Positions 1-18,789 are shown, numbered from the stretch's first letter. The stretch is DNA of 34,282 nt from an uncultured Oscillospiraceae bacterium (GCA_964447725.1 CAYUUB010000001.1:1-34282), one strand, 5' to 3'. Notes: generated by a model from the letters alone, not told the origin. A program made the numbers and translations.

Positions 1-1
1 G

Positions 2-2053
2 GAGCTGCTTGGCTGCAAGGACGCCAAGGTGCAATATTTCCTGATCAACGTGCTAAAGATCGACCCGGCTTATTACGCCCAGATTGCCGAAAGGCTGGCC
101 GAACCGGACGTGATCGAGCCGGTCCTGCCGCTGGAAATCTGCGAATGCAGGAACCTCACCTCGCTGCACCGGGAGCTCGTCGTACGGGACGACGTGCTGG
201 AATCGGTCGTAAAGGTGTTTTTCCGAAAGTCCAAAAGAAACGTCCTGCTGCATGGCGACCGCGGGACGGGCCTGACAAGCATGGCCGCTTTGCTTGCGAC
301 GGAACTGCGCGACGGACGATATGCCTCGCTGAGGCACATTCAGGTAATCTGGTTCGATCTTTCCGGCGTTGCGGAGGGAGATTATGAAGAAGCCGCGGAA
401 AAACTGATGCGCTTTTTTGACGAAGAACCGGAACGCATCTACGTCGTCGAAGGTTTTTATAAGTATTTCAAGGATCATTTTTCAGCCGTTGCCCGAAGGC
501 TGCTCAAAAATAGTTATCGATTGCTGCTGATTACGGACACCGAAGAATACAACAGCCTTTCCGCAATGGGCGAACAGCTCGGCGCCTGCATGGAACCGGT
601 CCTTTTGCCGGAGGCCGGGAAGGCGGACGTACAGAAGATGATCGACCTTGCGCTGCCGGAAATCGAGCGGGAGTACGGCGTGCGCCTTGCAAAGGGCGTC
701 TCCAAAACGGCGTACCGCATGGCGAACGACTATTTGCTCTCCAAGCGGTTCCCGAAAAAAGCGATTGAACTGATTGCGCAAACCGCCGCCGACGTGTCGG
801 CGGAGGCGGAAATGCACGGTAAAACGGACCCGGCGATGACGCAGGAACACCTTGCCGGCCGGCTGGCGGTGCTGACGGGGCTTCCGGCGGAAACGATCCT
901 CGGCACGGGCGCGGACAAGGACTATGCGTTCCTGCTCTCAAGACGGCTGGTCGGCCAGGACGCGGCGGTGAACAAGGTTGCAGGGCGGCTCGACCTCATT
1001 CAAAAGGGAATGGTGGACAAAAAAGCGCCCGCCGCGGTGTTTGTGTTTGCGGGGCTGTCCGGCACGGGCAAAACGGAGCTTGCAAAGCAGATCGCCCAGA
1101 TTTATTCGAATTCCAGAAAGCTGATCTCCTTTGAAATGGCCAACTTTGGCGAGGCGCACAGCGTTTCGCGCCTGATCGGCACGCCGCCGGGCTACGTCGG
1201 CTATGAGGAGGGCGGCAAGCTGATTAACGACCTCAACAACGACCCGTACTCCGTTGTGCTGCTCGACGAGATCGAAAAAGCGAATCCGGCCGTATGGGAC
1301 CCGTTCCTGAACCTGTTCGACGAAGGCACGATCACGGACATGCGCGGCGTGACCGCCTCCGGTAGCAAGGCGTTTTTCGTGCTGACGTCCAACATCGGCC
1401 AGTACGACATCGCAAAGATGCTTCGCGAGGGTCGTCCGCAGGAAGAAATCGAGGACGTGGTGAAAAACAAATTCGGTACGGAAAAGCACTATAAAACGGG
1501 GGAACCCTGCTTCCGGCCGGAGTTTATCGGGCGCATCATGCGCCGCGGCGGCATCGTGGTGTTTAACGCGCTTTCGCGCGAGGCGCTGGAAGGTATTGCG
1601 CGCTATATGTTTTCAAAGAAAGCAAAGGAATACGGCGAAGTGCACGAGGGAAAGCTGATCTGCGACGACGACGTGATCGAGATGCTCGCCGGACGCGTGT
1701 TTGAAGGCAACGAGCAGGCGATTCGGCGCGGTTCCGGCTATTACGGCGGCCGCGAGCTGGATATTCTGATGAACCAGTATGTCGACAACAAGATCGCGTC
1801 CCAGCTGCGGCAGCTTGCGGGCGTGCCGCTTGTGCGCATCGTGAAAAACGGCGAAGATACCTCGGTGGTTCCCGTCTACAACGACGCGGACGCGGCGTCG
1901 CTGCTGGCGGAAAAACACCGCGCGCTGGTGGACCGCGTCGCGCAGAGGTTCGACAAGGTGGCCATGCTTTCCTCGGACGCGTTTGCGGACCTGGGCGACG
2001 AAAGCCTCGCCAAGCTGAACGCGCTGCTTTCGGAAATCGACATGATGGTATAA
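2..2053 (+). CDS. Clp/Hsp100-family AAA+ ATPase with degenerate D1 and intact ClpB-D2-like (AAA_2) module; probably 5'-truncated by the window edge (alternative start GTG 29)
   Basis: The frame is open from nt 2 with no stop upstream of GTG 29, and the first residues (ELLGCKDAKVQYFLINVLKIDP) resemble the end of a Clp_N repeat. D1-like module: Walker A is GDRGTGLT (nt 254-277, Lys replaced by Leu) and there is no hhhhDE Walker B (IYVVEGF). D2: GLSGTGKT (nt 1052-1075), VVLLDEIEKA, VLTSN sensor-1 and FRPEFIGRI, all typical of ClpA/ClpB D2. There is no long coiled-coil M-domain between the modules. Confidence 0.8.
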   Translation, partial: ELLGCKDAKVQYFLINVLKIDPAYYAQIAERLAEPDVIEPVLPLEICECRNLTSLHRELVVRDDVLESVVKVFFRKSKRNVLLHGDRGTGLTSMAALLATELRDGRYASLRHIQVIWFDLSGVAEGDYEEAAEKLMRFFDEEPERIYVVEGFYKYFKDHFSAVARRLLKNSYRLLLITDTEEYNSLSAMGEQLGACMEPVLLPEAGKADVQKMIDLALPEIEREYGVRLAKGVSKTAYRMANDYLLSKRFPKKAIELIAQTAADVSAEAEMHGKTDPAMTQEHLAGRLAVLTGLPAETILGTGADKDYAFLLSRRLVGQDAAVNKVAGRLDLIQKGMVDKKAPAAVFVFAGLSGTGKTELAKQIAQIYSNSRKLISFEMANFGEAHSVSRLIGTPPGYVGYEEGGKLINDLNNDPYSVVLLDEIEKANPAVWDPFLNLFDEGTITDMRGVTASGSKAFFVLTSNIGQYDIAKMLREGRPQEEIEDVVKNKFGTEKHYKTGEPCFRPEFIGRIMRRGGIVVFNALSREALEGIARYMFSKKAKEYGEVHEGKLICDDDVIEMLAGRVFEGNEQAIRRGSGYYGGRELDILMNQYVDNKIASQLRQLAGVPLVRIVKNGEDTSVVPVYNDADAASLLAEKHRALVDRVAQRFDKVAMLSSDAFADLGDESLAKLNALLSEIDMMV

Positions 2054-2069: not shown

Positions 2070-3278
2070 GTGTTGGTATCGGAACTTTCCGGCCAGACGA
2101 TCGGAGACGGCCAGTACCGGCTGCTGGTGCGGCTGGGCGGAGGAAACTTCGGCACGGTCTATCGCGCGGAAGAGCTGATGAACGGCGCCGTGGTGCGCGA
2201 GGTCGCCATTAAGATCTACAAACCGGAAGCAACGGCCCTGGGAAACGTGGACGGCATGCTGGAAGACTGTGCGTTGCCGGCGAAAATCCTCGCGTCAAGC
2301 GCGCCGCTGGCGCAGAAGCAGCATTTCGTGCCGATCTATTCGTTTGGCAAGCTGGATACGCCCGCCGGGCGATGCGCATTCGTCTCCATGGAACTGATAC
2401 GCGACGGCGAAACGCTTGAAGCGCTCACGAAGCGCTATCGCCGCTTAAAGCGCTTCCCGAGCGAAGCCGCAATCGTCGATTTGATGCGGCAGTTTTTCAC
2501 GGCGCTGTCGCTCGCGCACCGCGCAGGCGTCCTGCACAGGGACATCAAGGGCGCGAACGTCATGATCCAGAACGGCGTTGTGCGCGTGATGGATTTCGGC
2601 ATGGGCGCATATGCAAACCGGCCGGACACGGCGCTTTGCACCACGATGAGCATCTATGCGCCGGAAAATTTCGAGGGACGGTATACCGAAGCGTCGGATA
2701 TCTATCAGGCGGGGCTGATGTTTTACGAGTTGTATACGGGATATTCGCCTTTTGCGGACCGATTCGGCGGCGGCACCGACATGCTGCGCGAGCAAAAGAA
2801 GCGCGTCGACTTTCAGTTCCGCGGCGGGGCCTACTTTCAGGGCGCGGATCCGTCGCCGAGGCTCGATAAGGTTCTTGCCCGTTGCCTGCGCTACAGCGAC
2901 GAAGCGCGTTATACGAGCGCAAACGCCGTTCTCGAAGCGCTGGAAGGGGCGAAATCGACGGAAGCGCTGCGCCAGGCGCTCACCGACAACGAATTCGACG
3001 CCGTGCTCCGTTTATCGGAAGAAATACTGGCCGGCCCGCGCATAAGGGACGACCAGCGCATCGAGTGTCTGACGTCCCGCGCGAAGGCGTATGCCGGGAA
3101 GAATGAAAACGAAAATGCGCTCACGTCCTATATGGAGGCGCTCAGTCTGGTTGACAAAACGGGGATCTATTTTCACCAGCCGTCAAAATACAACGCGCTG
3201 ATCGACAGCATTTGTATTCTCTATCTTAAAACCGGCCAGACGGGAAGCGCGCGGCTGTTCGCAAAGAAAAAACGCTGA
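2070..3278 (+). CDS. Hanks-type Ser/Thr protein kinase, soluble, with C-terminal TPR-like helical region
   Basis: SD AAAGGAGGA precedes GTG 2070. Kinase motifs are GGGNFGTVY, VAIK, HRDIKGAN (nt 2535-2558), DFG and APE. The last ~110 aa are helical-repeat-like. No hydrophobic TM segment. Confidence 0.85.
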   Translation: MLVSELSGQTIGDGQYRLLVRLGGGNFGTVYRAEELMNGAVVREVAIKIYKPEATALGNVDGMLEDCALPAKILASSAPLAQKQHFVPIYSFGKLDTPAGRCAFVSMELIRDGETLEALTKRYRRLKRFPSEAAIVDLMRQFFTALSLAHRAGVLHRDIKGANVMIQNGVVRVMDFGMGAYANRPDTALCTTMSIYAPENFEGRYTEASDIYQAGLMFYELYTGYSPFADRFGGGTDMLREQKKRVDFQFRGGAYFQGADPSPRLDKVLARCLRYSDEARYTSANAVLEALEGAKSTEALRQALTDNEFDAVLRLSEEILAGPRIRDDQRIECLTSRAKAYAGKNENENALTSYMEALSLVDKTGIYFHQPSKYNALIDSICILYLKTGQTGSARLFAKKKR

Positions 3279-3339: not shown

Positions 3340-4119
3340 ATGCAGTTCAAACCATTACCGGAGAAAAGAGCAGTACCGGCGTTTGTAAAAAAAGTGCCGG
3401 CGCAGACCGTCGTTTTAGAATTGATGAAGACCGGCGCGGCCGAACGGAGCACGCTCCGGCAGGAAATTGAAGCCGAGCGGAAACGTGCCGACAGCCTGGC
3501 GACGGCGTTCGCGCTGCAGGTATACCGCAAACGCGGCAGCGACGATCCGTTCGTTCACATGCTGTCCGATTTGATGGCGGAATATAAGGTAGAGGCGGTC
3601 ACCTACGAAGGCGAACCGCTTACCCCGGAACTGGAGACGGCGGCGGACATCGTGGAATGGCTGCCGGCCGGGGACAACGATGCCGAATGCGTGGTCGAGG
3701 CGATTGAGCCGGAAATCCGTTTTCAGGGCCGCATCCTCCACCGGGCGAAGCTCTCCTGCAGGAAAGCGCCGGAACCCGAACCGGAAATCACGGCGGAGCC
3801 CGAGCAGGCGGTTGCCAGTGAAAGCGCGGCGGCCGAAGAAGCGGCGAAGGAGCCGACTGCCGAAGCCGCAAACGGGTCTTTGGAGCCGGCGGACGCCGCG
3901 GCAGAGGAGCGGCCCGTCGAACCTGCGGCCGCCGCCGGGCCGCAGACCGCGCCGGAGCGTGAGAAACCGGGCCGGAAGGCGCGGTTCATGGCGATCATCG
4001 GAAAACTGTTTTCCAAATGGAAAAAGCCGGGGAATCCGGAAGCGCAAGCAACGATGGAAGATACGGCTACCAAAGCCGACGATACGGACAACGAGAATGA
4101 AGGGAGCGACAGAACATGA
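3340..4119 (+). CDS. GrpE-like nucleotide-exchange-factor candidate (minimal beta-domain) with long Ala/Glu/Pro low-complexity tail
   Basis: SD AGGAGG precedes ATG 3340. The segment nt 3586-3768 (KVEAVTYEGEPLTPE...ECVVEAIEPEIRFQGRILHRAKLSCRK) follows the GrpE C-terminal pattern (gVE.i...G.pfDP..H.A....vv.v.qkGY.l.GrvlRpA.V.V.k). The tail (nt 3769-4119) is acidic/Pro-rich and contains a basic amphipathic stretch FMAIIGKLFSKWKK. The stop overlaps the Hsp70 start (ATGA at 4116-4119). The CDS itself is solid; the GrpE assignment is moderate. Confidence 0.6.
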   Translation: MQFKPLPEKRAVPAFVKKVPAQTVVLELMKTGAAERSTLRQEIEAERKRADSLATAFALQVYRKRGSDDPFVHMLSDLMAEYKVEAVTYEGEPLTPELETAADIVEWLPAGDNDAECVVEAIEPEIRFQGRILHRAKLSCRKAPEPEPEITAEPEQAVASESAAAEEAAKEPTAEAANGSLEPADAAAEERPVEPAAAAGPQTAPEREKPGRKARFMAIIGKLFSKWKKPGNPEAQATMEDTATKADDTDNENEGSDRT

Positions 4120-6665
4120 AGACCAGTAAATGTGTCGGGATCGACCTCGGCACGACGAACAGCGTCATCGCGATGATTGCCAACGACAACAAAACGATCG
4201 TATGCCGGACGGACAGAAGCGGACGAAAGACATTCCCGTCGGTTATCGTTTACGATGCGAAGTCGGATTCTGCGAAAGCGGGCCAGATTGCGTTTAACAG
4301 GCGCGGCACCACGCCGGAGCCGATCGTATCGATCAAGCGCCACATGGGGAACGCCAACTATCGCGCGACCTGCGGTGCGCTGAACTTGTCGCCCGTCGAA
4401 GTTTCCGCCGAGATCCTGCGCACCATGAAAGAGAACATGCAGGATTATCTCAATAAAATCCCGGAATATTCCGACTATGTGGTGGACCGGGCGGTCATCA
4501 CCATTCCGGCGTACTTTGCTTCGAACGCTCGCGAAGCGACGACGCAGGCGGGCGAAATGGCTGGCTTGAAGGTGGAATTTACGCTCCAGGAACCCACCGC
4601 ATCGGCATTATATTACTGTTTTAAAAACGGGATCGATAATGGGATCTTCATGGTCTACGACCTTGGCGGCGGAACGTTCGACGTCTCCATTGTCCGGATG
4701 AACGAGGGCGACGCATATGTGCTCGGCATTGCCGGGAACAACTACCTTGGCGGCGACAACTTCGACGACGCGCTGGCGCATCGTTTGCTTGAACTGCTGC
4801 AGGACCCGGAAGAGGGGTACGATCTGGACCTGGATATCAACCACGAAGAGGAAGACCGCCTGCGCTTTACACGGCTGAAGCTCGAGGCCGAGATTATCAA
4901 AAAAGCGCTGTCCAAGAAAGAGGAGCATTTCGAAGCCGCGGACGGCGTCATCAAGGATAAATGCGGCGCGTCGGTCAATCTTGCCGCAACCGTTACGCGC
5001 AAAGAGTTTGAGGAGATGATCCGGCCGCTGCTGGAAACTACGATAGAGGAATGCTATAAGGCGCTGAAAGAAGCCGAAGAGAAACACAGCGTTACGCTGG
5101 ATATGATCGACGGCGTGCTGCTGGTCGGCGGAAGCACGCACATACCGGCCGTTGCACGGATCATTGAAAAAACGTTTACCGATCCCGGCCTCCCGGTCCA
5201 TACGAAGCTGCCGAAGCCGCTGGTGGACGAACCCGATATGGCGGTCGGCTACGGTGCGGCGATCGCCGCCGCGTCCTGCGGAATCGTATCCGCGGGAGCG
5301 GAGGCCGTCGAGCATAAGGGCGTGAAGCTGCAGGTAACGGCGGAGTTCAAGCCGGGCCGCGGGTACGCCGGCATCAGCATTGTGGAGGGCAGGATTTCGG
5401 CGGTGTCCGGCAATCTGCCGGACGGCATTTACGCGAAGGTTCAGCGTGCCGCAGGCGGGTTTTCAAAGGAATACATGGTGAACGAGGACGGCAGCTTCGT
5501 TTTTGACGAGCTCATGTCCGTGGAGGAAAAGGAACCGTACGCGTGCGAGTTTTACGCGGGGAACACGCTGATTCTCAGCACAAGCTTCGATGCGGCGGTG
5601 CTTGCCGTCGGCGAAATGCCCGTCGTTTTGTCCCGCAACTACTATATTCAGACGCTCAACGAAAACACCGGCGCGCTTCAACTGGTGAAACTCATGGAGA
5701 AAGGGACGCAACTGCCGTGCTCGAAGGACTATGAGTTTGAAGTCAACAGCAAAAACCCGTATTATGCCGAACTGCGTTTTTTCGAAGAAACGGAGTTTCT
5801 CAAGCAGGTCAACATGACGTTCGACCCGCCGGTTCCGCAGGGCACGGTCATCCGGCTGTCGCTGGCTTGCGATATTTCGAGCCGTTTTACCGCGCGTGCG
5901 GAGGCCGCCGGCATTGTCGTGGACGTTACGTTCGAGCAGTCGCCGATCGAGCCGGTCGATCCGGACGAGCTGGACCAGCTCGTGCACGACGTAAGAGATC
6001 GCATTGCAATGATCCCGAAAGCGGGCGACCGTATCGTTGCGGAAACGATGCTGACGCGGATCGTGCGGGAAATCGAACAGGCCATCGACGAAGGCGACAT
6101 CTGCAAAGCAAACGAAAAAATGGTGGAGCTGCGGGGAATCGGCGGGTTTACCGCAAGCCATGCGCCGCTGGAACCGCCGAAACAGGAGTTTGACGCGTTG
6201 GTCGCGGAAGTAAAGAAGCTCAATGAAACGTCTGAAAACGGAAGCCCGAAATTCGAACCGGACATCGCAAGCGCGGCTTCCCTGGGATATCGCGCCTATG
6301 ACAATGAAGACCAGGCGGTTCTCTCAAAAGCGGTGGCCGATTTGAATGCAATCAAGAAGGAGATAGCGGGAGAAGACCCGCCGTCGCCCACTCCGCCGAT
6401 GTGGCTGATTTGCCAGGTCTTTGCAAAGAAGGCGCTGGAACTCATCCAAAAAGTCGATGAGGAATCGAAGATACCGTCTGAATTCAAGAAAAAACTGATG
6501 GCTTCGGCACCGGCCGACCGCAAGGCGCTGCGAGAGGTACAGGATGCAACGCGCTTCATGCTCAGCGACGAAGAATGCGCGCCGCATATGAACGTCCTGA
6601 GGCAGGTATACCCAAAGTGGGAAAAGGCGGCTAAAATGTCCGGCATTCCGACTATTAAAATGTAA
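4116..6665 (+). CDS. Divergent Hsp70/DnaK-family ATPase (849 aa) with insertion between NBD and SBD-beta and an extended helical C-terminus
   Basis: NBD motifs: GIDLGTTNSVIA, IKRHMG, LQEPTASALYY, DLGGGTFDVSIV, LGGDNFDDAL, LLVGGSTHIPAV, DEPDMAVGYGAAIAAA. SBD-beta-like segment nt 5616-5940: VVLSRNYYIQTL..LVKLMEKGTQLPCSK..ELRFFEE..FDPPVPQGTVIRLSLACD. A ~115-aa insert (nt 5274-5615) replaces the canonical VLLLDVTPLSLG linker. Confidence 0.9.
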   Translation: MKTSKCVGIDLGTTNSVIAMIANDNKTIVCRTDRSGRKTFPSVIVYDAKSDSAKAGQIAFNRRGTTPEPIVSIKRHMGNANYRATCGALNLSPVEVSAEILRTMKENMQDYLNKIPEYSDYVVDRAVITIPAYFASNAREATTQAGEMAGLKVEFTLQEPTASALYYCFKNGIDNGIFMVYDLGGGTFDVSIVRMNEGDAYVLGIAGNNYLGGDNFDDALAHRLLELLQDPEEGYDLDLDINHEEEDRLRFTRLKLEAEIIKKALSKKEEHFEAADGVIKDKCGASVNLAATVTRKEFEEMIRPLLETTIEECYKALKEAEEKHSVTLDMIDGVLLVGGSTHIPAVARIIEKTFTDPGLPVHTKLPKPLVDEPDMAVGYGAAIAAASCGIVSAGAEAVEHKGVKLQVTAEFKPGRGYAGISIVEGRISAVSGNLPDGIYAKVQRAAGGFSKEYMVNEDGSFVFDELMSVEEKEPYACEFYAGNTLILSTSFDAAVLAVGEMPVVLSRNYYIQTLNENTGALQLVKLMEKGTQLPCSKDYEFEVNSKNPYYAELRFFEETEFLKQVNMTFDPPVPQGTVIRLSLACDISSRFTARAEAAGIVVDVTFEQSPIEPVDPDELDQLVHDVRDRIAMIPKAGDRIVAETMLTRIVREIEQAIDEGDICKANEKMVELRGIGGFTASHAPLEPPKQEFDALVAEVKKLNETSENGSPKFEPDIASAASLGYRAYDNEDQAVLSKAVADLNAIKKEIAGEDPPSPTPPMWLICQVFAKKALELIQKVDEESKIPSEFKKKLMASAPADRKALREVQDATRFMLSDEECAPHMNVLRQVYPKWEKAAKMSGIPTIKM

Positions 6666-6688: not shown

Positions 6689-7186
6689 ATGATCTGCCCA
6701 ATCTGCGCGGCATCTTTGAAACCCGATCAGCAAAAGTGCCCGAACTGCAAAAACGATCTGACGTATTTTCTGACGCTTGCCTACCAGCCGGACCTGCTGT
6801 TCAACGACGCGATCGGCCGCATGAAGCGGGAAGATTACGACGGCGCGAGCGACCTGCTCTGCCGCGCGAGCGCGATGCGGCCGGACGACGCGGAGATCAA
6901 GGCGCTTTGGGCGCAGGCGTGCTACGGCGCCGGAAATTTAAAAAAGGCGTTGAGCCTGATGCTCGATTTGATGGGGAGCGCGCCGACGGAAGCGCTGGGC
7001 GCACAGTGCGAACGGCTGATGAGCGAGTATGAACGAAGCGCGTCGTCTCCGGAAACCCTGATCCGCGATCTGCTGCTTACACAGAGCGACCGGATGGAAA
7101 ATTTGATCGGGCGTCTCGAGCGTTTGGCGGAGCCCGGATCGGATCAAGCGCCTCCGGAAAAGGGGGATAACGATGAACCTGTATGA
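6689..7186 (+). CDS. Zn-ribbon (CPxC...CPxC) plus TPR-like small protein
   Basis: SD GAGGAAGAGGGGG precedes ATG 6689. The N-terminal MICPICAASLKPDQQKCPNCKN is a four-Cys zinc ribbon. It is followed by helical TPR-like repeats (DYDGASDLLCRASAMRPDDAEIKALWAQACYGAGNLKKALSL). Confidence 0.7.
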   Translation: MICPICAASLKPDQQKCPNCKNDLTYFLTLAYQPDLLFNDAIGRMKREDYDGASDLLCRASAMRPDDAEIKALWAQACYGAGNLKKALSLMLDLMGSAPTEALGAQCERLMSEYERSASSPETLIRDLLLTQSDRMENLIGRLERLAEPGSDQAPPEKGDNDEPV

Positions 7187-9998
7187 AGCGCTCGGCGCGC
7201 CGCCGACACTGTCGTCGAAAGATATGGCGATGCATATCCGAATGATGCCGACGACGCTCTTGTCGCCGCAGCAGCGGACACAGTACAGCGGCGAGCTTCT
7301 GAACCCGAAGACGCGACTTTACAACGAGCTGAAAACCTTGCGCTTTCCGCCGCGGCCCGGCGAGGAAGAAACAAACTCGCTCTATAAAAGCGTTTGCAAA
7401 AAAATCACGCATGCCTCGGGTGAGCCAATCCCTTACCGGTTTTTCAAAACGGAATTTCAGCGTTTGCTAAAGGATTGCGGATATACGCAGAATACATCGT
7501 CTGCGGAACTGATCGAAAACACGCTGAATAAGGCCATCGATCAAATCACGGACGTCTGGCGCTTTCAGGGATATGCCGCGCTGTTTTTGCGCATCGCCGA
7601 GAACAGCGAGCAGAGCGACCCCAAAAACGCGCATCGCGCCTGGCTCGTGGCGTTGGAAGCTTATCAGCGGTTCTTTGCCGAAGCCGACGTGAAGGACAGC
7701 TGCGCATACCGCGCCCAGACGGAAAAACAATTTCAGGATAAATGCCGCGAAGCATGGGGCGAGTTTCTGAAAGGGCAACTGGAGGACGTTTATCAGCGCC
7801 TGAAGCGCAATATCAAGCAAAAAAATGCGGACGGCGTCGGTGCCTGCGTACAGATCCTGCAACTCAGTTTGGCAAAAAGCATCGCGCCGGACATATCTGC
7901 GAGCGCCGTAGCGGACAGCTTGCTTCCGTATACTTCGGCGATACGAACGGCGCCGTCTCTTTCAACAGCGGGAAAGATGTACAAAAATTGCCCGAAAGCG
8001 TTGCTGGCGCAGGACGAACACGACGAATGCAAGCGCGCAATGCTCGGCGCGCTCAGCAAGGCGACGGGCCAACTTGCCGAGGGCAACGAGAATATTACGG
8101 AAATCATTCGGTGGGCAAACGCGCTGAAAGCGAAAGAGCTGTATCAAAGGGGCTCGTTGCTGGTGAAAAGCGACGCCAACCTGTTTTTTGAGGCTTGTAC
8201 GGAATTTATCCGAAGCGTGATACAAAACCATAAGCTCGACCGGACGAAAGAGATGGAGCTGCTCGTAACGATCCTTCCAGCCGACTTTTTTATCGCGAAA
8301 TCCGATGGCGACGACCTGAAGCAAAACGACATGCTGGGGTTCGGTGTTTTAATGTGCCTCAAAGACCTGTTGGAAAGGGACGTCTCCGCTTCGATGAAGG
8401 AAAGCACCGCCAAAACGATCGGCGGGCGCGCTTACAGGATGATTGACGAAAGCGTCCCGAAAGGGACGTTCAGGGACAAAACGCTTGGCAAGGTCAATCG
8501 CTATCTGATCATACAACTGCAGAACAGGAATGTTTCGCATTCGGCGTTCAGAGCCTTTATAGACATATTTCCGGACGACTGGCCCATCGATATTCCGGAG
8601 GTTCAAAACTTTGGGAAGCTGAAGGGGGGCGTGATCGGCGACCCGCTCGTTGCACAGGCATTCAAGCTGCTGAAAGAGGCGAACGAAGCGACCGCAGGAA
8701 CGCCCGATCAGGAGAAAAAACTGCGCGCGTTGATCGACTTTGCCTGCGCCAACCCGGGCCTTGATCTGGGGCAGGCTGATATGAACTTTAAAGAACTGGT
8801 GGACCGTGTCCTGACCCAGGCGTTTGTGGGCAGCTTTAACGCCTACATGAACGTGGACCTTTCTTTTGACAAAAACGATCCGGACATTATGGCGAATCTG
8901 CAGAACGCTATTTCCAAGCGGAGCCAGGCGAGCAGCGTTATAAAGCTTTGCGGCAGCTTTCTTCCGGCGAAGACAAAATTACCGGCGGAAGCGAGCAAGA
9001 AGCCGACGACGGATTCGCTTATGGAAAAAATCAGCGTCAAAAAGGACGATGCGTTTGTTAAGCGGCGGAAACAATACGATCGCAGCCGCGCTAAGAAGAC
9101 GACGACCAAGCCTACGCCTACGCCACCGCCCCCCCCGACGCCTCCGACGCCGAAAATCAAACCAAAGCATACAAAGATCAACGGCCTCCGCTTCCGCGGA
9201 GGGAGCGTCGCGGCCGCCATACAGTATTTTATCTGGATGCTGGTCCTTCCGATGCTTGGCGCTTACCTGATTCTCCGAATGCCGATACATTCGTACGATA
9301 CGATGATGATGCGTTTTCTCCTGTTCAGGGCGGAGCTTTACGTATGGGCAGCGCTGCTGATCAACGGCATTTTCGGGTTGATGGCCAACAGCAAGAACGG
9401 GAGAGTGTCCGGGTTCGGAAAGACGATGCGGGTCTTTGTCTGGATGGCGGCGGTGCTGATGACGCTGGTGTACGCCCCGCTTCATCTATGGAAGGCAAGC
9501 ATTTTCGCACGCGTACTTGTGGGGATCTGGGCGCTTATATTGCTCATCGTTATGAACAAACAGATCGACAAGAACGCGTATTACCCCGACAACATCATCA
9601 CAATCGATGGAATTAAGTATCACGGCGGCGGGATCGCGGTGTTCTTCAAGTTCCTCATCATGCAGATGATCGTGCCGTGCATCGTCGCGTCGCTGATCTT
9701 CATTTTCGACTGGCAGCTTTCGCCCGGCTGGATATTTGGGTTTAAACTCATCGGCCTGGCGATTGCGCTCAGCATCCTGCGCGTGTTCTTCACCTGCCTT
9801 GCCGAGGCGAGAAGCGTAAAACGGTTCGCCGCGTTTATGGCCGTAGAGATTTACATGCTGGTTCTGCCGATATGCGGCTGGTATGCGATAACCTATTTTG
9901 ACGCGCTGCCGTTGAAATGGTGGATGATCGTATTATACTCGGTCTACGGGCTCTTCTTCCTGATCGGAACGATTGCGGCGGCCCGGATGAAGGACTGA
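7173..9998 (+). CDS. Large membrane-anchored protein: N-terminal J-like (HPD-less) motif, ~600-aa helical domain, Pro/Thr linker, 8 predicted TM helices (2x4 internal duplication)
   Basis: SD AAGGGGGA precedes ATG 7173, which overlaps the upstream gene by 14 nt. The N-terminus NLYEALGAPPTLSSKDMAMHIR...ELLNPKTRLYNEL resembles J-domain helices I-II and IV, but no HPD is present. Linker: PTPTPPPPPTPPTPK. The hydrophobic C-terminal 270 aa contain two homologous halves, starting INGLRFRGGSVA (nt 9177) and IDGIKYHGGGIA (nt 9603). Confidence 0.75.
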   Translation: MNLYEALGAPPTLSSKDMAMHIRMMPTTLLSPQQRTQYSGELLNPKTRLYNELKTLRFPPRPGEEETNSLYKSVCKKITHASGEPIPYRFFKTEFQRLLKDCGYTQNTSSAELIENTLNKAIDQITDVWRFQGYAALFLRIAENSEQSDPKNAHRAWLVALEAYQRFFAEADVKDSCAYRAQTEKQFQDKCREAWGEFLKGQLEDVYQRLKRNIKQKNADGVGACVQILQLSLAKSIAPDISASAVADSLLPYTSAIRTAPSLSTAGKMYKNCPKALLAQDEHDECKRAMLGALSKATGQLAEGNENITEIIRWANALKAKELYQRGSLLVKSDANLFFEACTEFIRSVIQNHKLDRTKEMELLVTILPADFFIAKSDGDDLKQNDMLGFGVLMCLKDLLERDVSASMKESTAKTIGGRAYRMIDESVPKGTFRDKTLGKVNRYLIIQLQNRNVSHSAFRAFIDIFPDDWPIDIPEVQNFGKLKGGVIGDPLVAQAFKLLKEANEATAGTPDQEKKLRALIDFACANPGLDLGQADMNFKELVDRVLTQAFVGSFNAYMNVDLSFDKNDPDIMANLQNAISKRSQASSVIKLCGSFLPAKTKLPAEASKKPTTDSLMEKISVKKDDAFVKRRKQYDRSRAKKTTTKPTPTPPPPPTPPTPKIKPKHTKINGLRFRGGSVAAAIQYFIWMLVLPMLGAYLILRMPIHSYDTMMMRFLLFRAELYVWAALLINGIFGLMANSKNGRVSGFGKTMRVFVWMAAVLMTLVYAPLHLWKASIFARVLVGIWALILLIVMNKQIDKNAYYPDNIITIDGIKYHGGGIAVFFKFLIMQMIVPCIVASLIFIFDWQLSPGWIFGFKLIGLAIALSILRVFFTCLAEARSVKRFAAFMAVEIYMLVLPICGWYAITYFDALPLKWWMIVLYSVYGLFFLIGTIAAARMKD

Positions 9999-10001
9999 AC
10001 G

Positions 10002-13000
10002 ATGGAACCTTTCGCACGAGAAACCGCGCTTTTAGGCGTATATCGGGTTCTGGACGGGCCGATCAGCGGCGCGATGGGCCGTGTGTTTCGCGTGCGGCAT
10101 CTTGAATGGGACGTCGACCTTGCGATGAAACAGCCGAACGAGCGGGCGCTTGCGATAGCGGCTTACAGAAGCTGCTTTACGCACGAATGCGAGGCTTGGA
10201 TCGATCTGGGCCTTCACGAGCACATCGTGTCGTGCTACTACGTGCGCGAAATCGACGGCGTGCCGTCGATTTTCGCGGAATGGATGGACGGCGGCAGCTT
10301 ACGTTCGAAGATAGCGGACGGTTTTTTCCGGCAGGACGATGAAGGCGCGGCGCTTTCGCGTATCCTCGACGTGGCGATCCAAACGTCCCGCGGGCTTGGC
10401 TATGCGCACGAATGCGGATTGATCCACCAGGACGTAAAGCCGGACAACATCCTGCTTTCGTCGGACGGGACCGTTAAAGTGACGGATTTTGGCATCTCCG
10501 GCATCTGCTGCCAGACGGAGGGCGGCGCCGCGGCCGCAGGAACGGCAGGCGGGCCGAACGCCCTGCGCTGCCAAAGCGCGCCGGGAACGCCCGCGTACTG
10601 TTCGCCGGAGCAGAAACGCGGCGGGACGGCCACGATTTGGACGGACCTCTGGAGCTTTGCCGTCATGCTGCTGGAGATGCTCCTAAACGACCGCCCGTGG
10701 CGGGACGGAGAGGTTGCGGGGCTCTGCTGCGAAAAGTATCTGGCAAAAATCGGTGATTTTGCACCGGAAAAATTGAAAACGCTTCTGCGGAGATGCTTTT
10801 CGCAAGAAGAAGCACGGCGGCCGCAGGGATTCGGGGAAGTCGAACGCATACTTTGCAACGTCTATTTCGAGCGGACCGGGCGCGCGTATCCGCGCGCGCT
10901 TCCCGACAACCCCGCGGCGAGCGCGGGCGCGCTCAATAATCGGGCGCTGAGCTTTCTCGACCTCGACAAACCCGAACAGGCGGAGGCGCTCTGGAAGTCC
11001 GCATTGCAGGCGTACCCGGGGCACATGCCCTCCGTATTCAATCAAACCGTATATCATTGGCGCTTGGCGAAAATCGACGATCTGGAAGCGATGCGCAGCA
11101 TTCAGAATTGTTTCAATGGCGATCCGTGCGCCGAAACCGCGGAACTGTTCGCGCGGTTTTTGAGCGAGCGGGAGACGACGCGGCCGGTCCGGCAGCTGGC
11201 GGACCGCTTCGGGAGCTCGGTTGCTTCCCGCGGCGCGCTCGCCCGGGAGACGAGCGAAGACGCCTGCGTACGCCTCTGCGCAAAAAGCGCGCGCGCAATC
11301 GCCGCCGGCGAGGACAGGTTGTGCGCGATTGCGTTTGAGGACCGTTCGCTCGAAATCTGGAATACGGAAACGCGCATGTGCACGGCGACTTTGGAACGGC
11401 ACGGCGAAAAGATAAACGCGCTCGATTTCGATTCGCGTGCGGGGATTGTTGCCGCCGCGTGCGAGGACCGTTCTTTACGGCTTTATGGGACGAACGGAAC
11501 GATGATCCGACGGCTTTCGTTTACCGAAGGCGCCGTAAAACGCGTTCGTTTGTTCAGCGGGACGAACAGCGCGCTTCTGCTGCTCTGTAGAACGGAAGAC
11601 GGGCGGGCCAAACGCTATGTCATGCGCGTCGATCTGGAAAGCGGCGCGTGGCGGAACAAAATAAAAGCCCCGCAGTTCGGCCATGCCGGATTTTGCGCGC
11701 TGGGAGACGGGCGGCGTTTCGTTACGGACACGGGAGGCAGGCTTTTCCTTTGGGATATTGAGACGGCCGAATGTTTACGCACATTTTCGCTCCAAACGGG
11801 CGGCGTGTCCTGCGCCGCGGCCGACGCGGCGCAGGAACGGCTGCTCGTCGGAACGGACGAAGGGGACGCACGGGTGTTTTCGATAAAGGACGGAAGCTGC
11901 GTGCTGCGGCTTAACGGGCACACGGGCGCCGTCACCGCGGCTGCGTTTCACCCGGACGGCAAACAGGCGATGACCGCGGGACAGGACGAGACCGTTCGCG
12001 TCTGGGATTTGTCGACGGGGCGCTGCCTGCGCTCGTTCACCGCGCATCGGTCGCCCGTAAACTGCGCGTGTTATTGCAGCGGCGGGCGGGCCATCCTGTC
12101 CTCGGGATGGGACAACGCCGTTTTGATGCAGTTTGTACCGGTGTTTTCCTATCGCGCCGACTGGCAGCTTTGCCGGATCGTCCCGCTGGCGGGCCAGCGG
12201 GCTCTGCGCGATACGTTCGACCGCTTTCTGGACGATGCCGCGCGCGCGGCCGAGGCGGGCGAGACGGCCCGCGCCCTTTCGCTTCTCTATGCGGCGGGCG
12301 ACCTCCAGGGATTCGCGCAGGACCCGGCATATCTGGAGAGAAACGCGGCGCTCGGCGCCCGGCTTCCGATCGGCGGCGTAAGGTTCGCCTGGACGAGGCG
12401 CGTATTAGCGAATGAAGGGCCGCTGCGGGCGGCGGCGTTCCTGTGCGGCGATACGCGCGTTCTTACCGCGTCGGGAGCCGGCTTGCTGCAGGTTTGGGAC
12501 ATGGAAAACGGAGCCTGCGTCCGCAAGGCGGGATTGCCCGGACCGGCGAAAAGCGTGGCGGTCGCCGAAGGCATGATTGCAATCGGAACCGCCGACGGCA
12601 CGGTGCGATTGCTGCGGCCGGACGACCTGTCGGAAATTTGCGTTTTCAGCGGCCATACCGGGCCGGTGAACGCCGTTTGCATCAGCCAAACCCGGACGGT
12701 ATTGACGGCGTCCTGGGACCACACGCTGCGTGTGTTCGAAGCAAATGGAGACTGCCGGTTCGCGTTGAACGGGCATACGTCCAGCGTTTCCGCCGCCGCG
12801 CTTTCGCCGGACGGCGCGCTTGCCCTTTCCGGCGGGTGGGACAATACCGTTCGCATCTGGGATGCGGAAACGGGGCGGTGCCTGCGCGCGCTGACGCATC
12901 ACAAAACCAGCGTGAGCGCTGTTGCGCTGTCGCCCGACGGTTTGATCGGCGCGTCGGGGGACTGGGACGGCGAAATCGTGTTATTCGACCTGAAAACCGG

Positions 13001-13271
13001 GCAAATGCGCGCCCGGCTAACAGGTGCTTCCGGTTCCGTTACCGGAATATGCTTCACGCGGGACGGCAGGTTTGTCGCTTCCTGTGGGACGGACGGGCTC
13101 GTTCGCTTCCGGCGCGTATCCGACGGCGCGGTGGAGACGGTGCTCGCGGGTCACACGGGCGCGGTCAACGCCCTTGACTTCACGCGGGACAGCCGATTTG
13201 CCGTAACCGCGGGAGAGGACGGCACCGTCCGGCTGATACAAGTCGATTACAGGTACGATGCCGACGACTGA
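10002..13271 (+). CDS. Hanks-type Ser/Thr kinase fused to TPR-like linker and a long WD40 array (probably two beta-propellers)
   Basis: ATG 10002 lies 3 nt after the upstream stop. Kinase motifs: LAMK, HQDVKPDNILL, DFG, TPAYCSPE. From ~nt 11320 there are repeated WD40 signatures, for example GHTGAVTAAAFHPDGKQAMTAGQDETVRVWD, GHTSSVSAAALSPDGALALSGGWDNTVRIWD, HHKTSVSAVALSPDGLIGASGDWDGEIVLFD and GHTGAVNALDFTRDSRFAVTAGEDGTVRL. Confidence 0.9.
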   Translation: MEPFARETALLGVYRVLDGPISGAMGRVFRVRHLEWDVDLAMKQPNERALAIAAYRSCFTHECEAWIDLGLHEHIVSCYYVREIDGVPSIFAEWMDGGSLRSKIADGFFRQDDEGAALSRILDVAIQTSRGLGYAHECGLIHQDVKPDNILLSSDGTVKVTDFGISGICCQTEGGAAAAGTAGGPNALRCQSAPGTPAYCSPEQKRGGTATIWTDLWSFAVMLLEMLLNDRPWRDGEVAGLCCEKYLAKIGDFAPEKLKTLLRRCFSQEEARRPQGFGEVERILCNVYFERTGRAYPRALPDNPAASAGALNNRALSFLDLDKPEQAEALWKSALQAYPGHMPSVFNQTVYHWRLAKIDDLEAMRSIQNCFNGDPCAETAELFARFLSERETTRPVRQLADRFGSSVASRGALARETSEDACVRLCAKSARAIAAGEDRLCAIAFEDRSLEIWNTETRMCTATLERHGEKINALDFDSRAGIVAAACEDRSLRLYGTNGTMIRRLSFTEGAVKRVRLFSGTNSALLLLCRTEDGRAKRYVMRVDLESGAWRNKIKAPQFGHAGFCALGDGRRFVTDTGGRLFLWDIETAECLRTFSLQTGGVSCAAADAAQERLLVGTDEGDARVFSIKDGSCVLRLNGHTGAVTAAAFHPDGKQAMTAGQDETVRVWDLSTGRCLRSFTAHRSPVNCACYCSGGRAILSSGWDNAVLMQFVPVFSYRADWQLCRIVPLAGQRALRDTFDRFLDDAARAAEAGETARALSLLYAAGDLQGFAQDPAYLERNAALGARLPIGGVRFAWTRRVLANEGPLRAAAFLCGDTRVLTASGAGLLQVWDMENGACVRKAGLPGPAKSVAVAEGMIAIGTADGTVRLLRPDDLSEICVFSGHTGPVNAVCISQTRTVLTASWDHTLRVFEANGDCRFALNGHTSSVSAAALSPDGALALSGGWDNTVRIWDAETGRCLRALTHHKTSVSAVALSPDGLIGASGDWDGEIVLFDLKTGQMRARLTGASGSVTGICFTRDGRFVASCGTDGLVRFRRVSDGAVETVLAGHTGAVNALDFTRDSRFAVTAGEDGTVRLIQVDYRYDADD

Positions 13272-13321: not shown

Positions 13322-16300
13322 GTGGAACTGAACCTTGCGATGCAGTTTGTGATGCTGCGGGCATATGAGGAAGCGAAAGCATTCAGCAAAGGAGAACTGG
13401 GCACGGAGCATCTTTTTTTGGGACTGCTGAAGCTTGCCGAATTGAAGTGCGCGGATTTTGCGCCGTCATACAAGAACCAAACGACGGTCGACGCAGATAT
13501 CCGGCAGGTTGCGGAGGAGCTGCAAAAAAGAGGCGTTCAAACTTCGGCGGGACGGCAGCAATTACGCCGGATATTGAGAAACGAACCTCTTTCGCCGTCG
13601 GCGCAGGAGCAGTTAAACCTGGTTTTGGGCAGCGCGATGTATCATGCCCAACAGGACGGACAGGCGGAAATCACGTCATACGGCGTGCTTGGCGCGATCC
13701 TGCGGCATCCCACGCCGATGCTGAAGAACCTGTTAAGCGGCGACGCGCAAAAGACCGAAGCGGAAGCCGGGCCGGAGGAGCAGGAAACGCCGCCGGAAGA
13801 ACCGGAAGAAACGGGGATCGCCTACCTGCCCAGGCTGAACGAGCGAATCCGCGAAATGCGGTACCGGCTGCTGGAGCGCGTGTACGGGCAGGACCACGCG
13901 GTCCACGCGCTGGCCGAAGGGATGTTTTCCGCGGAAGTACTCGCCGCCGCGGACGAAAACCGCAAACAGCCGCGCGCCGTGTTTGCGTTTGTCGGACCGC
14001 CGGGCGTTGGCAAAACCTATCTGGCGGAGCAGGCGGCCGACGCGCTGAAACTGCCGTTCAAGCGGTTTGATATGAGCGGCTATGCCGATCATCAGGCACA
14101 TATCAACCTCATCGGATTCGCGCCCAGCTATAAGGACGCAAAGCCGGGGCTGCTGACGGAGTTTGTGCGGAAGCACCCGCATTCGATCCTGCTGTTCGAC
14201 GAAATCGAAAAGGCGCACCTGAATACGATTCAGCTGTTCCTCCAGATTCTGGACGCCGGTCGTCTTCACGACGATTTTCTGGACGAGGACGTTCCGTTTA
14301 AAGACACTTTGATTATCTTTACCACCAATGCGGGCAGTTCGCTGTACGATAACCTGCACGGCGGCGCGGGCGTTTCGAGGCAGACCATCCTCAACACGCT
14401 GGAGACGGAGATGAATCCGCAGACGCACAAGCCGTATTTTCCGCCGGCGATCTGTTCGCGCCTGGCGACCGGCTGGCCGCTGCTGTTCAACCGGCTTTCC
14501 GCGCACGACCTCGAGCGGATATGCGAAAAGGAAGTGGCGCGCTTTAGCCAGATGTTTGAAAAGCAATATGGCATTCGCGTCGACACGGACCAGCTTTTAC
14601 CGGCGACGCTGCTGTTTGCGGAAGGTGGACTCGCCGACGCACGGACCGTGCGCGCGCAGACGGAATTGTTCTGCAAAAACGAGTTGTTCAAGCTCTGCGG
14701 GCTATGGGGCGAAAGCAGTTTTGAAAAAGCGCTGGAGAATCTGACGGCGATCCATTTCCAGGTGGAAACGAACGAGCTCGAAGACCGGGTGCGCGCGCTC
14801 TACGTTAACCCGGAGAAACCGGAGATACTATTGTTCGGGAACGCGGGTTTTGCCGAACGCTGCCGGGCGATGCTGCCGGATTGCATCATTTACGACACGC
14901 TGGACATGGCGCGGGCGTATTCGATTTTCGGCGAGCATGAGATCCAGTTCGTTTTGCTCGACCTTGCCAGAGAGGCGGAGAACGCGCCGGACGACGATCC
15001 GCTGGCGACGCGTCTTTCGCTGGACGACGTGCCGCAGGGGACCGTGGCGTCGTTCGAAAACGTACCGATCGCCGCGGCGTCCATCAGGGACGAATATGCG
15101 TTCCTGAAGAACGTGCGGGAGCGCATGCCGGACCTGCCGATTTATCTGCTGGAATCCAGCGGGTTCCGCATCGACAACGAGCTGATGGCGGCGTTCGTGC
15201 GCTCCGGCGCGCGTGGTAAGCTACTGAAACCGGAAGGCGATTTCGGCGTATTTGCTGAAGAACTGCTGCGTATCGCCGCCCAAGTGTATTTGCAAAGCGC
15301 CGCGCAGTCGCTGCACGCGGAGCGGAAAATACTGACCTTCGAAACGGCTCCGATTCTAAGTCCCGACAAGCATGTGGCGACGATCCGCCTGCGCGATCTT
15401 TCGCTGCGCCGCGAAATGTCCGCGGAAGACAGCGGCGGGGTGCTTGAAGAGACGGAGCGTCCCGACGTTCGTTTCTCGGACGTGATCGGCGCCGACGATG
15501 CAAAGGACGAGTTGGCGTTTTTCGTGCAGTATCTGCAATCGCCCAAGAAGTTTTTAGCGCAGGGGCTGCGTCCGCCCAAAGGTGTGCTCCTTTATGGACC
15601 TCCGGGCACCGGAAAGACGCTGCTGGCGCGCGCGATGGCAGGGGAGTCCAACGTGGCGTTCCTCTCGGTCGCCGCAAGCGCCTTTACGACGAAATATCAG
15701 GGGAGCGGGCCGGAGTCCGTACGCGAGCTGTTCCGGCGCGCCCGCCGCTATGCGCCGTCCATCGTGTTTATCGACGAGATCGACGCTGTCGGCCGGCTGC
15801 GCGGCGCAGGCAACACGGGGCACGGCGAGGAGATGGCGCTGACGGCGCTGCTGACGGAGATGGACGGCTTTTCCGTTGACCCGCGAAGGCCGGTTTTTGT
15901 GCTGGCGGCGACAAATTTCGGCGTGGACGGCGAGAATGGCTCTGCGGGCGTAATCGATCCTGCGCTTACGCGCCGGTTCGACCGCAAAATCCTCGTGGAC
16001 ATGCCGACGCGCGACAACCGGAAGGCATATCTGGAACGCATGCTGGGCAAGCGCAGGGACAGCGCGGTTACGCCGGGCCTGATCGACCGGCTTGCCGGGC
16101 GCACGACGGGGCTGAGCCTTGCCAGCCTGGAATCCGTTATCGAGCTTGCCGCGCGAACCGCCAGCAAGCAGAAAACGGCAATTACGGACGAGCTGCTGGA
16201 AGAAGCGCTTGAACTCAGCCGGCACGGCGAAAAGAAAGACTGGGGCGTCGATTATCTGGAACGCGTCGCGCGGCACGAAGCGGGGCATGCGTATCTTTGC

Positions 16301-16780
16301 TATCTTGCCGGCGAGACGCCGGCCTATCTGACCATCGTCGCGCGCGGCGGACACGGCGGGTACATGGAGCATTCGGACAAGGAACAGACGCCGATCCGAA
16401 CGCGGGACGAACTGCTGGGGAACATTCGCACCGCTCTCGGCGGGCGCGCGGCGGAGCTGGTCTATTACGGACAGGAGGGAGGGCTTTCCACCGGCGCCGC
16501 CGGCGACCTGGAGCATGCGGCGCGCGTTGCGTCCGCAATGCTGCTGCAATACGGCATGGAAGGCAGGCTTGGCCTCGCCGCGCTCAATCACGCGGAGGTT
16601 TTGAAAGGGCCGCTTTCCGAATCGATTGTGGAATATGTGTCGCAACTGCTGGAAGAAGAGCTGAAAAAAACAATCGGGACGGTTGAAGACGGCAGGGCAA
16701 AGATCGACCGTCTGGTGGAAGCGCTTCTCGATAAAAACAAGCTGACGCGCGAAGAGATCGAAGCGATTCTGAAAGCGTAG
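13322..16780 (+). CDS. Soluble chimeric AAA+ protease: Clp_N-like domain + ClpB-D2-like AAA + receiver-like domain + FtsH-like AAA + M41 Zn-metalloprotease
   Basis: SD GGAGG (13311-13315) precedes GTG 13322. Clp_N-like repeats: [25 protein letters not shown] and [16 protein letters not shown]_2 module: GPPGVGKT (13994-14017), [18 protein letters not shown]. Receiver-like segment: 14822-15232. FtsH-like AAA starts at 15467: [63 protein letters not shown]41 motifs: HEAGH (16274-16288) and [16 protein letters not shown]. No TM segment anywhere. Confidence 0.9.
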
Positions 16781-16892
16781 CGAACCGGACGGACGAGTTA
16801 AACGGAGGAACGTTTGCATTGTGCGGCGGATACGTATGCCGGACGCCCGGCACGCGTGATAGAATATACGTAAAGAACGGAGGGGATCGAAT

Positions 16893-17450
16893 ATGGCGTT
16901 TGAAATTGTTCGAAACGACATAACGAAGATGCATGTCGATGCGATCGTCAACGCCGCAAACTCCGGACTGCTTCGGGGCGGAGGCGTCTGCGGCGCAATT
17001 TTTTCCGCGGCGGGCGCGGAAGAATTGCAGCGGGCTTGCGACGCGATCGGCCGCTGCGAAACGGGAGAAGCCGTTATAACGGACGGCTTTCGCCTGCCCG
17101 CGCGGTATGTGATCCACACGGTCGGTCCGGTTTGGCGCGGCGGCATGCAAAACGAAGAAGCGTTGCTGCGTTCGTGCTACATAAAATCGCTGGAGCTCGC
17201 AAAATCGCGCGGCCTGCACTCGGTTGCATTCCCGCTGATTTCGTCCGGAATTTTCGGTTATCCGAAGGAAGAGGCCGTTTCGGTCGCGATTTCGGCGATC
17301 GAATCCTTCCTGCAAAAAAACGACATGGTCGTTTTCCTTGTCCTGTTTGACGAACAGACCTATCGCTTAAGCAAAAACTGCGTACATAAACGCCGTCGGC
17401 AGCTTTCAGAAACGGGCGGCTGCGAACTGGGAAGATCGATCAACCAATAA
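16893..17450 (+). CDS. Stand-alone macrodomain protein (MacroD/YmdB-like ADP-ribose / O-acetyl-ADP-ribose hydrolase)
   Basis: SD GGAGGGG precedes ATG 16893. Motifs: [48 protein letters not shown], typical of MacroD-type macrodomains. Confidence 0.88.
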
Positions 17451-17461
17451 GGTGCTTGCCG

Positions 17462-17497: not shown

Positions 17498-17513
17498 TAC
17501 AAATATGCTTCGC

Positions 17514-18757: not shown

Positions 18758-18789
18758 GGATGTTGAAAAATGGCGCAACGTTTCGGATT

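Follow-up and report, generated by a model that had tools for sequence, protein, structure and literature searches.

In Hsp70 chaperones, allostery is regarded as passing universally through a short hydrophobic linker, which is also counted as a part of the site at which the J-domain docks. What, then, becomes of an Hsp70 in which a whole folded domain sits in the place of this linker? The question is raised by a gene in a stretch of 34,282 nucleotides (nt) from an uncultured Oscillospiraceae bacterium (GCA_964447725.1, CAYUUB010000001.1:1-34282), hereafter called the window, which encodes an Hsp70-like protein of 849 amino acids (aa). The original prediction described the protein as an Hsp70 with intact ATPase motifs, an insert instead of the linker and a long C-terminal extension. 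The 849-aa protein is a genuine variant of Hsp70 that is rare and has not been characterised; its architecture is well supported, while its mechanism is what we infer. The gene and its parts are as follows:

4116..6665, plus strand: complete Hsp70-like open reading frame (ORF), 849 aa and stop codon (Pfam, family alignment, AlphaFold model)
4116..5279, plus strand: nucleotide-binding domain (NBD), residues 1-388, catalytic residues all intact (Pfam HSP70, E 1.3e-71; BLASTP)
5280..5318, plus strand: N-side connector, residues 389-401, including a short strand at 390-393 (AlphaFold models)
5319..5594, plus strand: predicted immunoglobulin (Ig)-like beta-sandwich insert, residues 402-493, with a conserved DGxFxFxxVPL motif (AlphaFold strands, Foldseek)
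5595..5636, plus strand: C-side junction, residues 494-507, which leads into VVLSRNYYIQT (predicted coil of lower pLDDT, the predicted local distance difference test score)
5637..5933, plus strand: divergent beta domain of the substrate-binding domain (SBD-beta), residues 508-606 (hhalign, Foldseek)
5949..6155, plus strand: lid-like helices, residues 612-680 (hhalign extension; model helices 616-678)
6165..6662, plus strand: family-specific helical C-terminal domain, residues 684-849, with a conserved LxPxxxxF at its start (helices 689-842)

The translation ends in ...GIPTIKM, as had been read before, and two metagenome assemblies that are independent of each other (from ENA and JGI, respectively) encode an identical 849-aa protein. 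The Pfam HSP70 match is confined to residues 7-386 (profile positions 2-373 of 599). The NCBIfam equivalogs for DnaK, PRK00290 and TIGR02350, give 251.9 bits against a cut-off of 648 and 243 against 822, and HscA gives 237 bits against 708; only the NBD is covered in each case. Of the features that define the Hsp70 superfamily, an NBD with its catalytic residues and an SBD-beta are present and a linker of the DVLLLD type is absent. The account of this protein as an ordinary DnaK with a misread linker, or as an artefact of assembly or frameshift, retains practically no probability. It is countered by the DnaK score of 252 bits, far below the cut-off, by the retention of the insert in 21 divergent homologues, by the recovery of the same protein in two assemblies and by a model that is confident throughout the insert region. 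The normal linker that the original prediction might have overlooked is excluded on the strength of the alignment, the score and the model.

Between the last helix of the NBD (residues 376-388) and SBD-beta, there are about 119 residues (389-507), which are all-beta in the model. The insert is found at the same position in 21 of 21 aligned family members, and the family alignment holds no conserved equivalent of a DVLLLD-type linker on either side of it. The N-side connector is placed immediately upstream of the DnaK linker position. In most members, the NBD is followed by the pattern G-h-x-h-x-D-x4-5 and then by a strand with alternating hydrophobic residues, e.g., VRVSF. The stretch as a whole matches the position of GVLTGDVKD-VLLLD in DnaK, yet its strand is the first strand of the sandwich. 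The short strand 390-393 is ordered in the full-length model and disordered in a model of the insert alone; the models suggest that these residues are stabilised by contact with another domain. On the other side, the VVLSRNYYIET segment upstream of SBD-beta corresponds to TPLSLGIET of DnaK. The residues preceding it are polar in most members, and a hydrophobic AVLAV is restricted to the closest relatives of the 849-aa protein. Thus, the alignment and the AlphaFold model bear out the claim that the allosteric linker is gone and that a folded domain stands in its place. The bounds first given for the insert need a correction: nt 5274 is residue S387, and the quoted ‘LQVTAEF’ begins at nt 5328.

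It was also observed that MAFFT puts the DnaK linker LLLDVTPL on the FxFxxVPL motif of the insert (residues 461-468, nt 5496-5519), without statistical support. This is the most conserved motif of the insert, and F461 is invariant. Judged from the sequences, the match may be chance or linker mimicry.

What kind of domain is the insert? A model of residues 389-504 alone has a pLDDT of 83.5, and a Foldseek search with it returns only generic Ig-like sandwiches at a template modelling (TM) score of 0.4-0.5 and E of about 1e-3, such as the Ig-like domain of GH2 glucuronidases, CARDB and CopC. Pfam and NCBIfam scans of the insert, the SBD and the extension give no consistent family match. One could suppose that the insert is a degenerate, duplicated SBD-beta, which would make the protein a carrier of tandem substrate-binding domains. 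Both domains are indeed beta-sandwiches of about 100 aa, and hhalign, when it extends the strong NBD alignment, carries the SBD-beta of DnaK onto the insert. However, the insert profile taken alone reaches a probability of just 2.9% against DnaK’s SBD-beta and 0.5% against the protein’s own SBD-beta, and the top Foldseek matches are Ig-like domains rather than Hsp70 SBDs. Because of these domain-wise hhalign and Foldseek results, the insert is classed, on its predicted structure, as an Ig-like beta-sandwich of no named family and not as a duplicated SBD. A duplication is very improbable, and together with misreading and artefact it is excluded as an account of the 849-aa protein.

The SBD-beta that had been recognised behind the insert is confirmed. 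The family profile of residues 501-612 matches the SBD-beta of DnaK with a probability of 92% (hhalign, E 6e-7), the model places strands at 509-605, and most positions that line the peptide pocket in DnaK are hydrophobic. The whole C-terminal profile matches the C-terminal region of HscC at 83%. The domain is too divergent for Pfam, which gives an SBD match in none of 20 family members. From SBD-beta, the hhalign alignment continues into the DnaK lid, with AIDEGDICKANEKMVEL aligned with ALKGEDKAAIEAKMQEL. The lid alignment is obtained only together with SBD-beta; the lid profile alone reaches 1.3%. The C-terminal extension had been put at about 240 aa, and a long helical tail is indeed present. 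About 65 aa of it are a probable lid homologue, and the extra domain amounts to just about 165 aa. In this extension, an XXXCH (GAK-system) domain was indicated with E 4e-4 to 1.6e-3 in just two of 20 members, and it was treated as noise.

The AlphaFold2 model, built from the 21-member alignment, has a mean pLDDT of 89 and a predicted TM score (pTM) of 0.75. Its elements follow each other as the last NBD helix (376-388), strands (390-492), a coil (493-508), strands (509-605) and ten helices (616-842). A Foldseek search against the PDB, proposed as a check along with the original prediction, was run with the full model and matched full-length Hsp70s, with 660-790 columns aligned and SBD-beta included. 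The best superpositions are with lid-truncated BiP, e.g., 6eob, 6zmd and 5o4p (target-normalised TM 0.76-0.80, root-mean-square deviation 6.5-8.6 Å). We take these BiP structures to be domain-docked and ATP-like. Undocked structures of the ADP state give a lower TM, 0.53-0.63.

How common is such a protein? A phmmer search of 1.84 billion representative proteins, with residues 387-849 as the query, yielded 42 clusters, which consist of proteins of about 840-1020 residues or shorter fragments. No canonical DnaK SBD is found among the 42. The 21 full-length members that were aligned have a common plan: an NBD, a beta-rich segment of about 100 residues with DGxFxFxxVPL, and an SBD-beta-like segment with the pattern LSxxxxLEV...GTxLP...F...LKxI...PxGTPIxF, after which an EPPP motif and the long helical tail follow. 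All named members are called ‘Hsp70 family protein’ and come from metagenome-assembled genomes (MAGs) of Oscillospiraceae, Eubacteriales, Bifidobacteriaceae and Propionicimonas. The identifiable hosts are all uncultured Clostridia and Actinomycetota. When one genome of each GTDB species was scanned for a single peptide pattern, at least five species gave a match, all of them MAGs; with just one pattern, this count is a lower bound.

In a coarse neighbour-joining tree of the NBD, with the three E. coli proteins DnaK, HscA and HscC as the only references, the 21 members form one clade outside all three. The NBDs of the family are 36-38% identical to those of DnaK and HscA (36-37% for DnaK) and 31-32% to that of HscC; for comparison, DnaK and HscA have 45% identity, and DnaK and HscC 39%. 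Along with the scores below the family cut-offs, the comparison with these proteins that had been proposed thus ends in a separate clade, and judged by its sequence, the 849-aa protein belongs to a rare, deep-branching group of Hsp70s. Within the family, any two members are on average 46% identical in the NBD, 21% in the insert, 25% in SBD-beta and 18-19% in the lid and C-terminal domain, and the last two are also the parts that diverge fastest among close relatives. The NBD is thus far better conserved than the rest of the protein (18-25%), as one would expect of a retained ATPase engine.

BLASTP aligns residues 5-383 with E. coli DnaK at 34% identity and gives no significant match beyond. 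The DnaK residues D8, T11, T12, K70, P143, E171, D194, T199 and D201 are invariant in all family sequences that cover them. Together with the Pfam HSP70 match, this upholds the reading of an Hsp70 with intact ATPase motifs. The residues that meet the co-chaperones are a different matter. The HPD motif of the J-domain is known to touch R167 and Q378 of DnaK, as well as L391 of the linker (PMC8215388). The R167 position is F (F155) in the 849-aa protein and mostly E across the family; the N170 position is mostly Q or H (here Q158). The positions of D148, R151, K155 and Q378 are variable, Q378 being A384 in the 849-aa protein. The GrpE-signature loop (DnaK 290-295), which HscA is reported to have lost by deletion and HscC to lack (PMC8215388), is kept at its length in the BLASTP alignment. 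A subclade of longer proteins (P0018, P0020 and P0040, 1006-1020 aa) carries two additional inserts within the NBD: one of about 75 residues in lobe I, following a SIKRxMG motif, and one of about 30-40 residues directly preceding the last NBD helices.

The gene does not stand alone. Around it, the following genes form a cassette, of which the last two are variable add-ons:

1..2053, plus strand: Hsp100/Clp-like double-AAA ATPase, cut off at its 5' end by the edge of the window (Pfam/NCBIfam, synteny)
2070..3278, plus strand: Ser/Thr protein kinase of 402 aa, part of the conserved cassette (Pkinase E 1.2e-28; HRD and DFG motifs; synteny)
3340..4119, plus strand: putative GrpE-like protein, 259 aa (NCBIfam, hhalign, position)
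6689..7186, plus strand: small zinc-ribbon and TPR protein, 165 aa (Pfam, synteny)
7173..9998, plus strand: protein of 941 aa whose N-terminal region is large, soluble and helical, with about seven transmembrane-like segments at residues 677-938
10002..13271, plus strand: fusion of a Ser/Thr kinase with WD40 propellers, variable add-on (Pfam)
13322..16780, plus strand: fusion of Clp_N, a Clp-D2-like AAA, an FtsH-type AAA and an M41 metalloprotease with a HEAGH motif, variable add-on

The window was compared with the loci L003, L004, L005, L006, L008, L010 and L014, of which L003 and L014 are truncated contigs with only a part of the cassette visible. The common order is an Hsp100/Clp-like ATPase (975-1015 aa), a Ser/Thr kinase (about 400 aa), a GrpE-like protein (207-289 aa), the Hsp70, a zinc-ribbon/TPR protein (152-210 aa) and a large protein (688-1084 aa). 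It is conserved in Oscillospiraceae, Candidatus (Ca.) Limiplasma and Bifidobacteriaceae. In the window, the zinc-ribbon/TPR gene overlaps the gene of the 941-aa protein by 14 nt (7173-7186), and the kinase-WD40 gene begins 4 nt past the preceding stop (9998-10002). With the junction between the GrpE-like and Hsp70 genes (4116-4119), these tight junctions suggest a single, translationally coupled operon.

The first gene of the cassette, which is full length in L003 (396-3338, 981 aa), encodes an ATPase that differs from ClpB. It has no M-domain, as residues 396-520 of T. thermophilus ClpB are bridged by about nine of its own residues. The Walker A motif of its D1 module reads GDRGTGLTS, without the lysine, and about 350 residues at its N-terminus have a weak similarity to Clp_N. 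The M-domain in D1 and the two active AAA modules by which a ClpB is recognised are therefore not both present. Since the M-domain is the contact of ClpB with DnaK, its absence implies a partner logic unlike that of the DnaK-ClpB pair.

The gene just upstream of the Hsp70 is a candidate for its exchange factor. In the window, its stop and the start of the Hsp70 have 4 nt in common (ATGA, 4116-4119), and in most loci the overlap amounts to 4-14 nt, an arrangement that suggests translational coupling. Such an overlap is seen in six of seven loci (the window, L004, L005, L006, L008 and L014), and in L010 a 338-aa ORF lies between the two genes. An hhalign comparison with E. coli GrpE gives a weak match (probability 18%, E 1.3e-3). 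The neighbour at 3340-4119 is thus a weakly supported GrpE-like protein as far as its sequence goes, and its conserved position over the Hsp70 start lends circumstantial backing to the call.

A J-domain partner fared worse. The 941-aa protein, encoded two genes downstream, had been taken for a J-like partner without the HPD motif. The likeness of its N-terminus, ‘NLYEALGAPP’ against ‘DYYEILGVSK’, was lost in the profile tests. When six homologous N-termini were compared with the J-domain of E. coli DnaJ, hhalign gave a probability of 0.19%. No J-domain was found by the PDB profile search, by Pfam or in the annotation of homologues, and there is no HPD motif. The J-like partner therefore had to be given up. 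Pfam finds no domain in the 941-aa protein or its homologues.

The genes that follow this core vary between loci. The kinase-WD40 protein occurs in the window, L004, L010 and probably L014 and is absent from L005, L006 and L008. It is followed by the Clp-FtsH fusion protease, an unusual, soluble protein of 1152 aa in the window, in the window, L004 and L010. The first AAA module of this protease is of the ClpB-D2 type, and no obvious transmembrane anchor is seen in its sequence. In L005, from a Bifidobacteriaceae MAG, a TPR-CHAT (caspase-like) protease at 15807-18368 takes the place of both, and an nSTAND-type NTPase is encoded upstream of the cassette. L004 and L010 each encode an FHA-kinase upstream, and a PP2C phosphatase is present in L004 as well. 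In L006 (Ca. Limiplasma, 15662-19561), JAB and ThiF/E1-like genes are found just downstream on the opposite strand. In the window, a macro-domain gene (16893-17450, plus strand, Pfam E 1e-43) comes directly after the cassette, and past it there are ordinary genes of carbohydrate metabolism (sugar, glycerate) and transport.

How might such an Hsp70 work? The reading that we favour, and to which we give about an even chance, is that of a rare clade of Ig-insert Hsp70s with a J-independent ATPase assisted by a nucleotide exchange factor (NEF) and serving a dedicated remodelling machine. The 849-aa protein would still cycle between ATP and ADP, with its GrpE-like neighbour as the exchange factor. 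No classical J-domain would be needed to trigger hydrolysis and client capture. In place of the linker, coupling or docking would fall to the Ig-like insert and the segments next to it. These could also be a binding platform for one of the cassette partners, be it the zinc-ribbon/TPR protein, the membrane protein with its soluble domain, or the kinase. Working alongside the M-domain-less Hsp100-like ATPase and variable proteases, the Hsp70 would belong to a machine for dedicated, phosphorylation-controlled remodelling or degradation at the membrane and not for general folding.

The use of an NEF is suggested by the length of the GrpE-signature loop, the overlapping GrpE-like gene in six of seven loci and the weak similarity to GrpE. 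An altered coupling and an altered co-chaperone logic are a reasonable inference from the sequence, because the linker is replaced and the J-contact and relay residues are not conserved. The original prediction had come to the same alteration; the loss of the linker and of the J-contact residues stands behind it, and the J-like partner that was to fit it does not. Several observations weigh against the favoured reading. The NCBIfam GrpE model scores the neighbour at 22.4 bits with a cut-off of 231 (E 7.7e-5), and this in two of six members; a PDB profile search with the GrpE-like alignment returned no GrpE, and Pfam gave no match. The cassette partners that could substitute for a J-domain are candidates only. 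The docked conformation of the model may reflect a bias of AlphaFold toward the ATP state. Finally, the distant member L009 has no cassette upstream of the gene, which means that this Hsp70 architecture can be separated from the cassette.

A different biological role can be imagined for the same protein. The Hsp70, the NEF-like protein, the Hsp100-like ATPase and the kinases could detect an invader or an aberrant protein and license a variable protease effector, be it the Clp-FtsH fusion or CHAT; they would then be the module that senses, or sets the threshold, in a conflict system directed against phage or leading to programmed cell death. This is compatible with the favoured reading of the protein itself and differs in the biological role alone. 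It would explain a fixed core with varying effector-like genes, i.e., kinase-WD40 and Clp-FtsH in L004 and L010 and TPR-CHAT in L005. The upstream FHA-kinase (L004, L010) and the PP2C phosphatase (L004), the nSTAND-type NTPase (L005) and the JAB and ThiF/E1-like genes (L006) among the neighbours, the macro-domain gene downstream in the window and a very sparse phyletic pattern are all in line with it. There is precedent in conflict systems that are chaperone-based or contain Hsp70 and GrpE, e.g., MoxR-vWA (PMC7159879), and in DnaK-like domains fused to protease-effector modules (PMC12642450). PADLOC gives domain-level matches for the kinases and AAA proteins, but for these only; the Hsp70, the GrpE-like, the zinc-ribbon/TPR and the membrane proteins have none. 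Moreover, there is no nuclease, TIR or pore-forming effector, no link to phage was found, and the association with defence islands is anecdotal (two of six loci). On balance, we consider a role of this kind rather unlikely. A broader proposal joins the two readings: the Ig-linker Hsp70 might be the core of a system for signalling or conflict that is centred on chaperones, has not been described before and belongs to anaerobic Clostridia and Actinomycetota. In it, a J-independent Hsp70/NEF pair, with the Ig-like domain as a built-in element for coupling and for the docking of partners, would join with Ser/Thr kinases and an M-domain-less Hsp100 to sense a specific protein cue at the membrane and release variable protease effectors (Clp-FtsH fusion or CHAT). 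As a joint claim this is tentative, and we would sooner doubt than believe it.

It could also be argued that the protein has given up its own allosteric cycle and become, like Hsp110, a constitutively docked holdase or an exchange cofactor for the housekeeping DnaK. The divergent linker, the loss of the J-contacts, the enlarged SBD region and the C-terminal extension are common to both, and such a role has been proposed for prokaryotic DnaK derivates (PMC13580251). The model is similar to docked, ATP-like states as well. However, the overlapping GrpE-like gene and the length of the GrpE-signature loop point to ADP/ATP cycling of its own, the catalytic residues are all invariant, and the insertion is at the linker, whereas that of Hsp110 sits inside SBD-beta. 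This makes the Hsp110-like role improbable.

Three types of prokaryotic Hsp70 are recognised, namely DnaK, HscA and HscC (PMC8215388), along with heterogeneous ‘derivates’ of DnaK with altered or missing linkers (PMC13580251). With DnaK, the family has in common the NBD fold, the catalytic residues, a recognisable SBD-beta, the length of the GrpE loop and an adjacent GrpE-like gene, and its first helices after SBD-beta resemble those of the lid. Unlike DnaK, it has an Ig-like domain instead of DVLLLD, does not conserve R167, N170 and Q378, adds a helical domain of about 165 aa and has no detectable J-protein in its operon. The derivates, e.g., the Myxococcus paralogues, also combine an NBD with modified or missing linkers and added domains, and their function is unknown (PMC13580251). 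However, they mostly lack a part or all of the SBD, and none is reported with a folded domain between the NBD and a retained SBD or with the present cassette. In Hsp110 and Grp170, the likeness extends to the divergent linker, the enlarged SBD region, the C-terminal extension and the docked, ATP-like conformation. Hsp110 has lost its responsiveness to J-domains, and the same is predicted for the 849-aa protein. Nevertheless, Hsp110 and Grp170 are restricted to eukaryotes, carry their insertion inside SBD-beta and have no dedicated GrpE-like partner, whereas here the insert precedes strand 1 of SBD-beta and the identifiable hosts are all bacterial MAGs. The resemblance is convergent and does not indicate membership (PMC13580251).

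At the level of the gene cluster, the closest parallels are the MoxR-vWA and GAP1-N2 GTPase (Hsp70 and GrpE) conflict systems, in which an NTPase chaperone is likewise joined by a co-chaperone, by kinases or a phosphatase and by variable effectors such as proteases (PMC7159879). The cassette, on the other hand, has no MoxR, vWA or GTPase, and the Hsp70 of those systems is not reported with the Ig-insert architecture. In the searched literature, there is no report of a folded domain between an NBD and a retained SBD, nor of the cassette. The clade is a natural experiment in how ATP hydrolysis can be coupled to client binding without the canonical linker and without a J-protein, while an exchange-factor-like partner is kept. 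The cassette, in turn, points to an undescribed, multi-component remodelling or signalling system of uncultured anaerobes that are known from metagenomes only.

HscC is the remaining comparison. Like the 849-aa protein, it is a specialised Hsp70; both have an insertion of about four residues in loop L1,2 of SBD-beta (PMC8215388), and both have a TPR-type protein and a membrane protein in their neighbourhood. Of the HscC features tested, the L1,2 insertion is the only one found in the 849-aa protein. HscC differs in being short (556 aa; 550-580 aa for the class), in its conserved linker, in the lack of a GrpE signature and in having true J-proteins. In E. coli, hscC (L019) is flanked by genes for Sel1/TPR-like proteins and for the J-domain co-chaperones DjlB and DjlC, which are membrane tail-anchored (PMC8215388); this arrangement is a loose parallel to the cassette.

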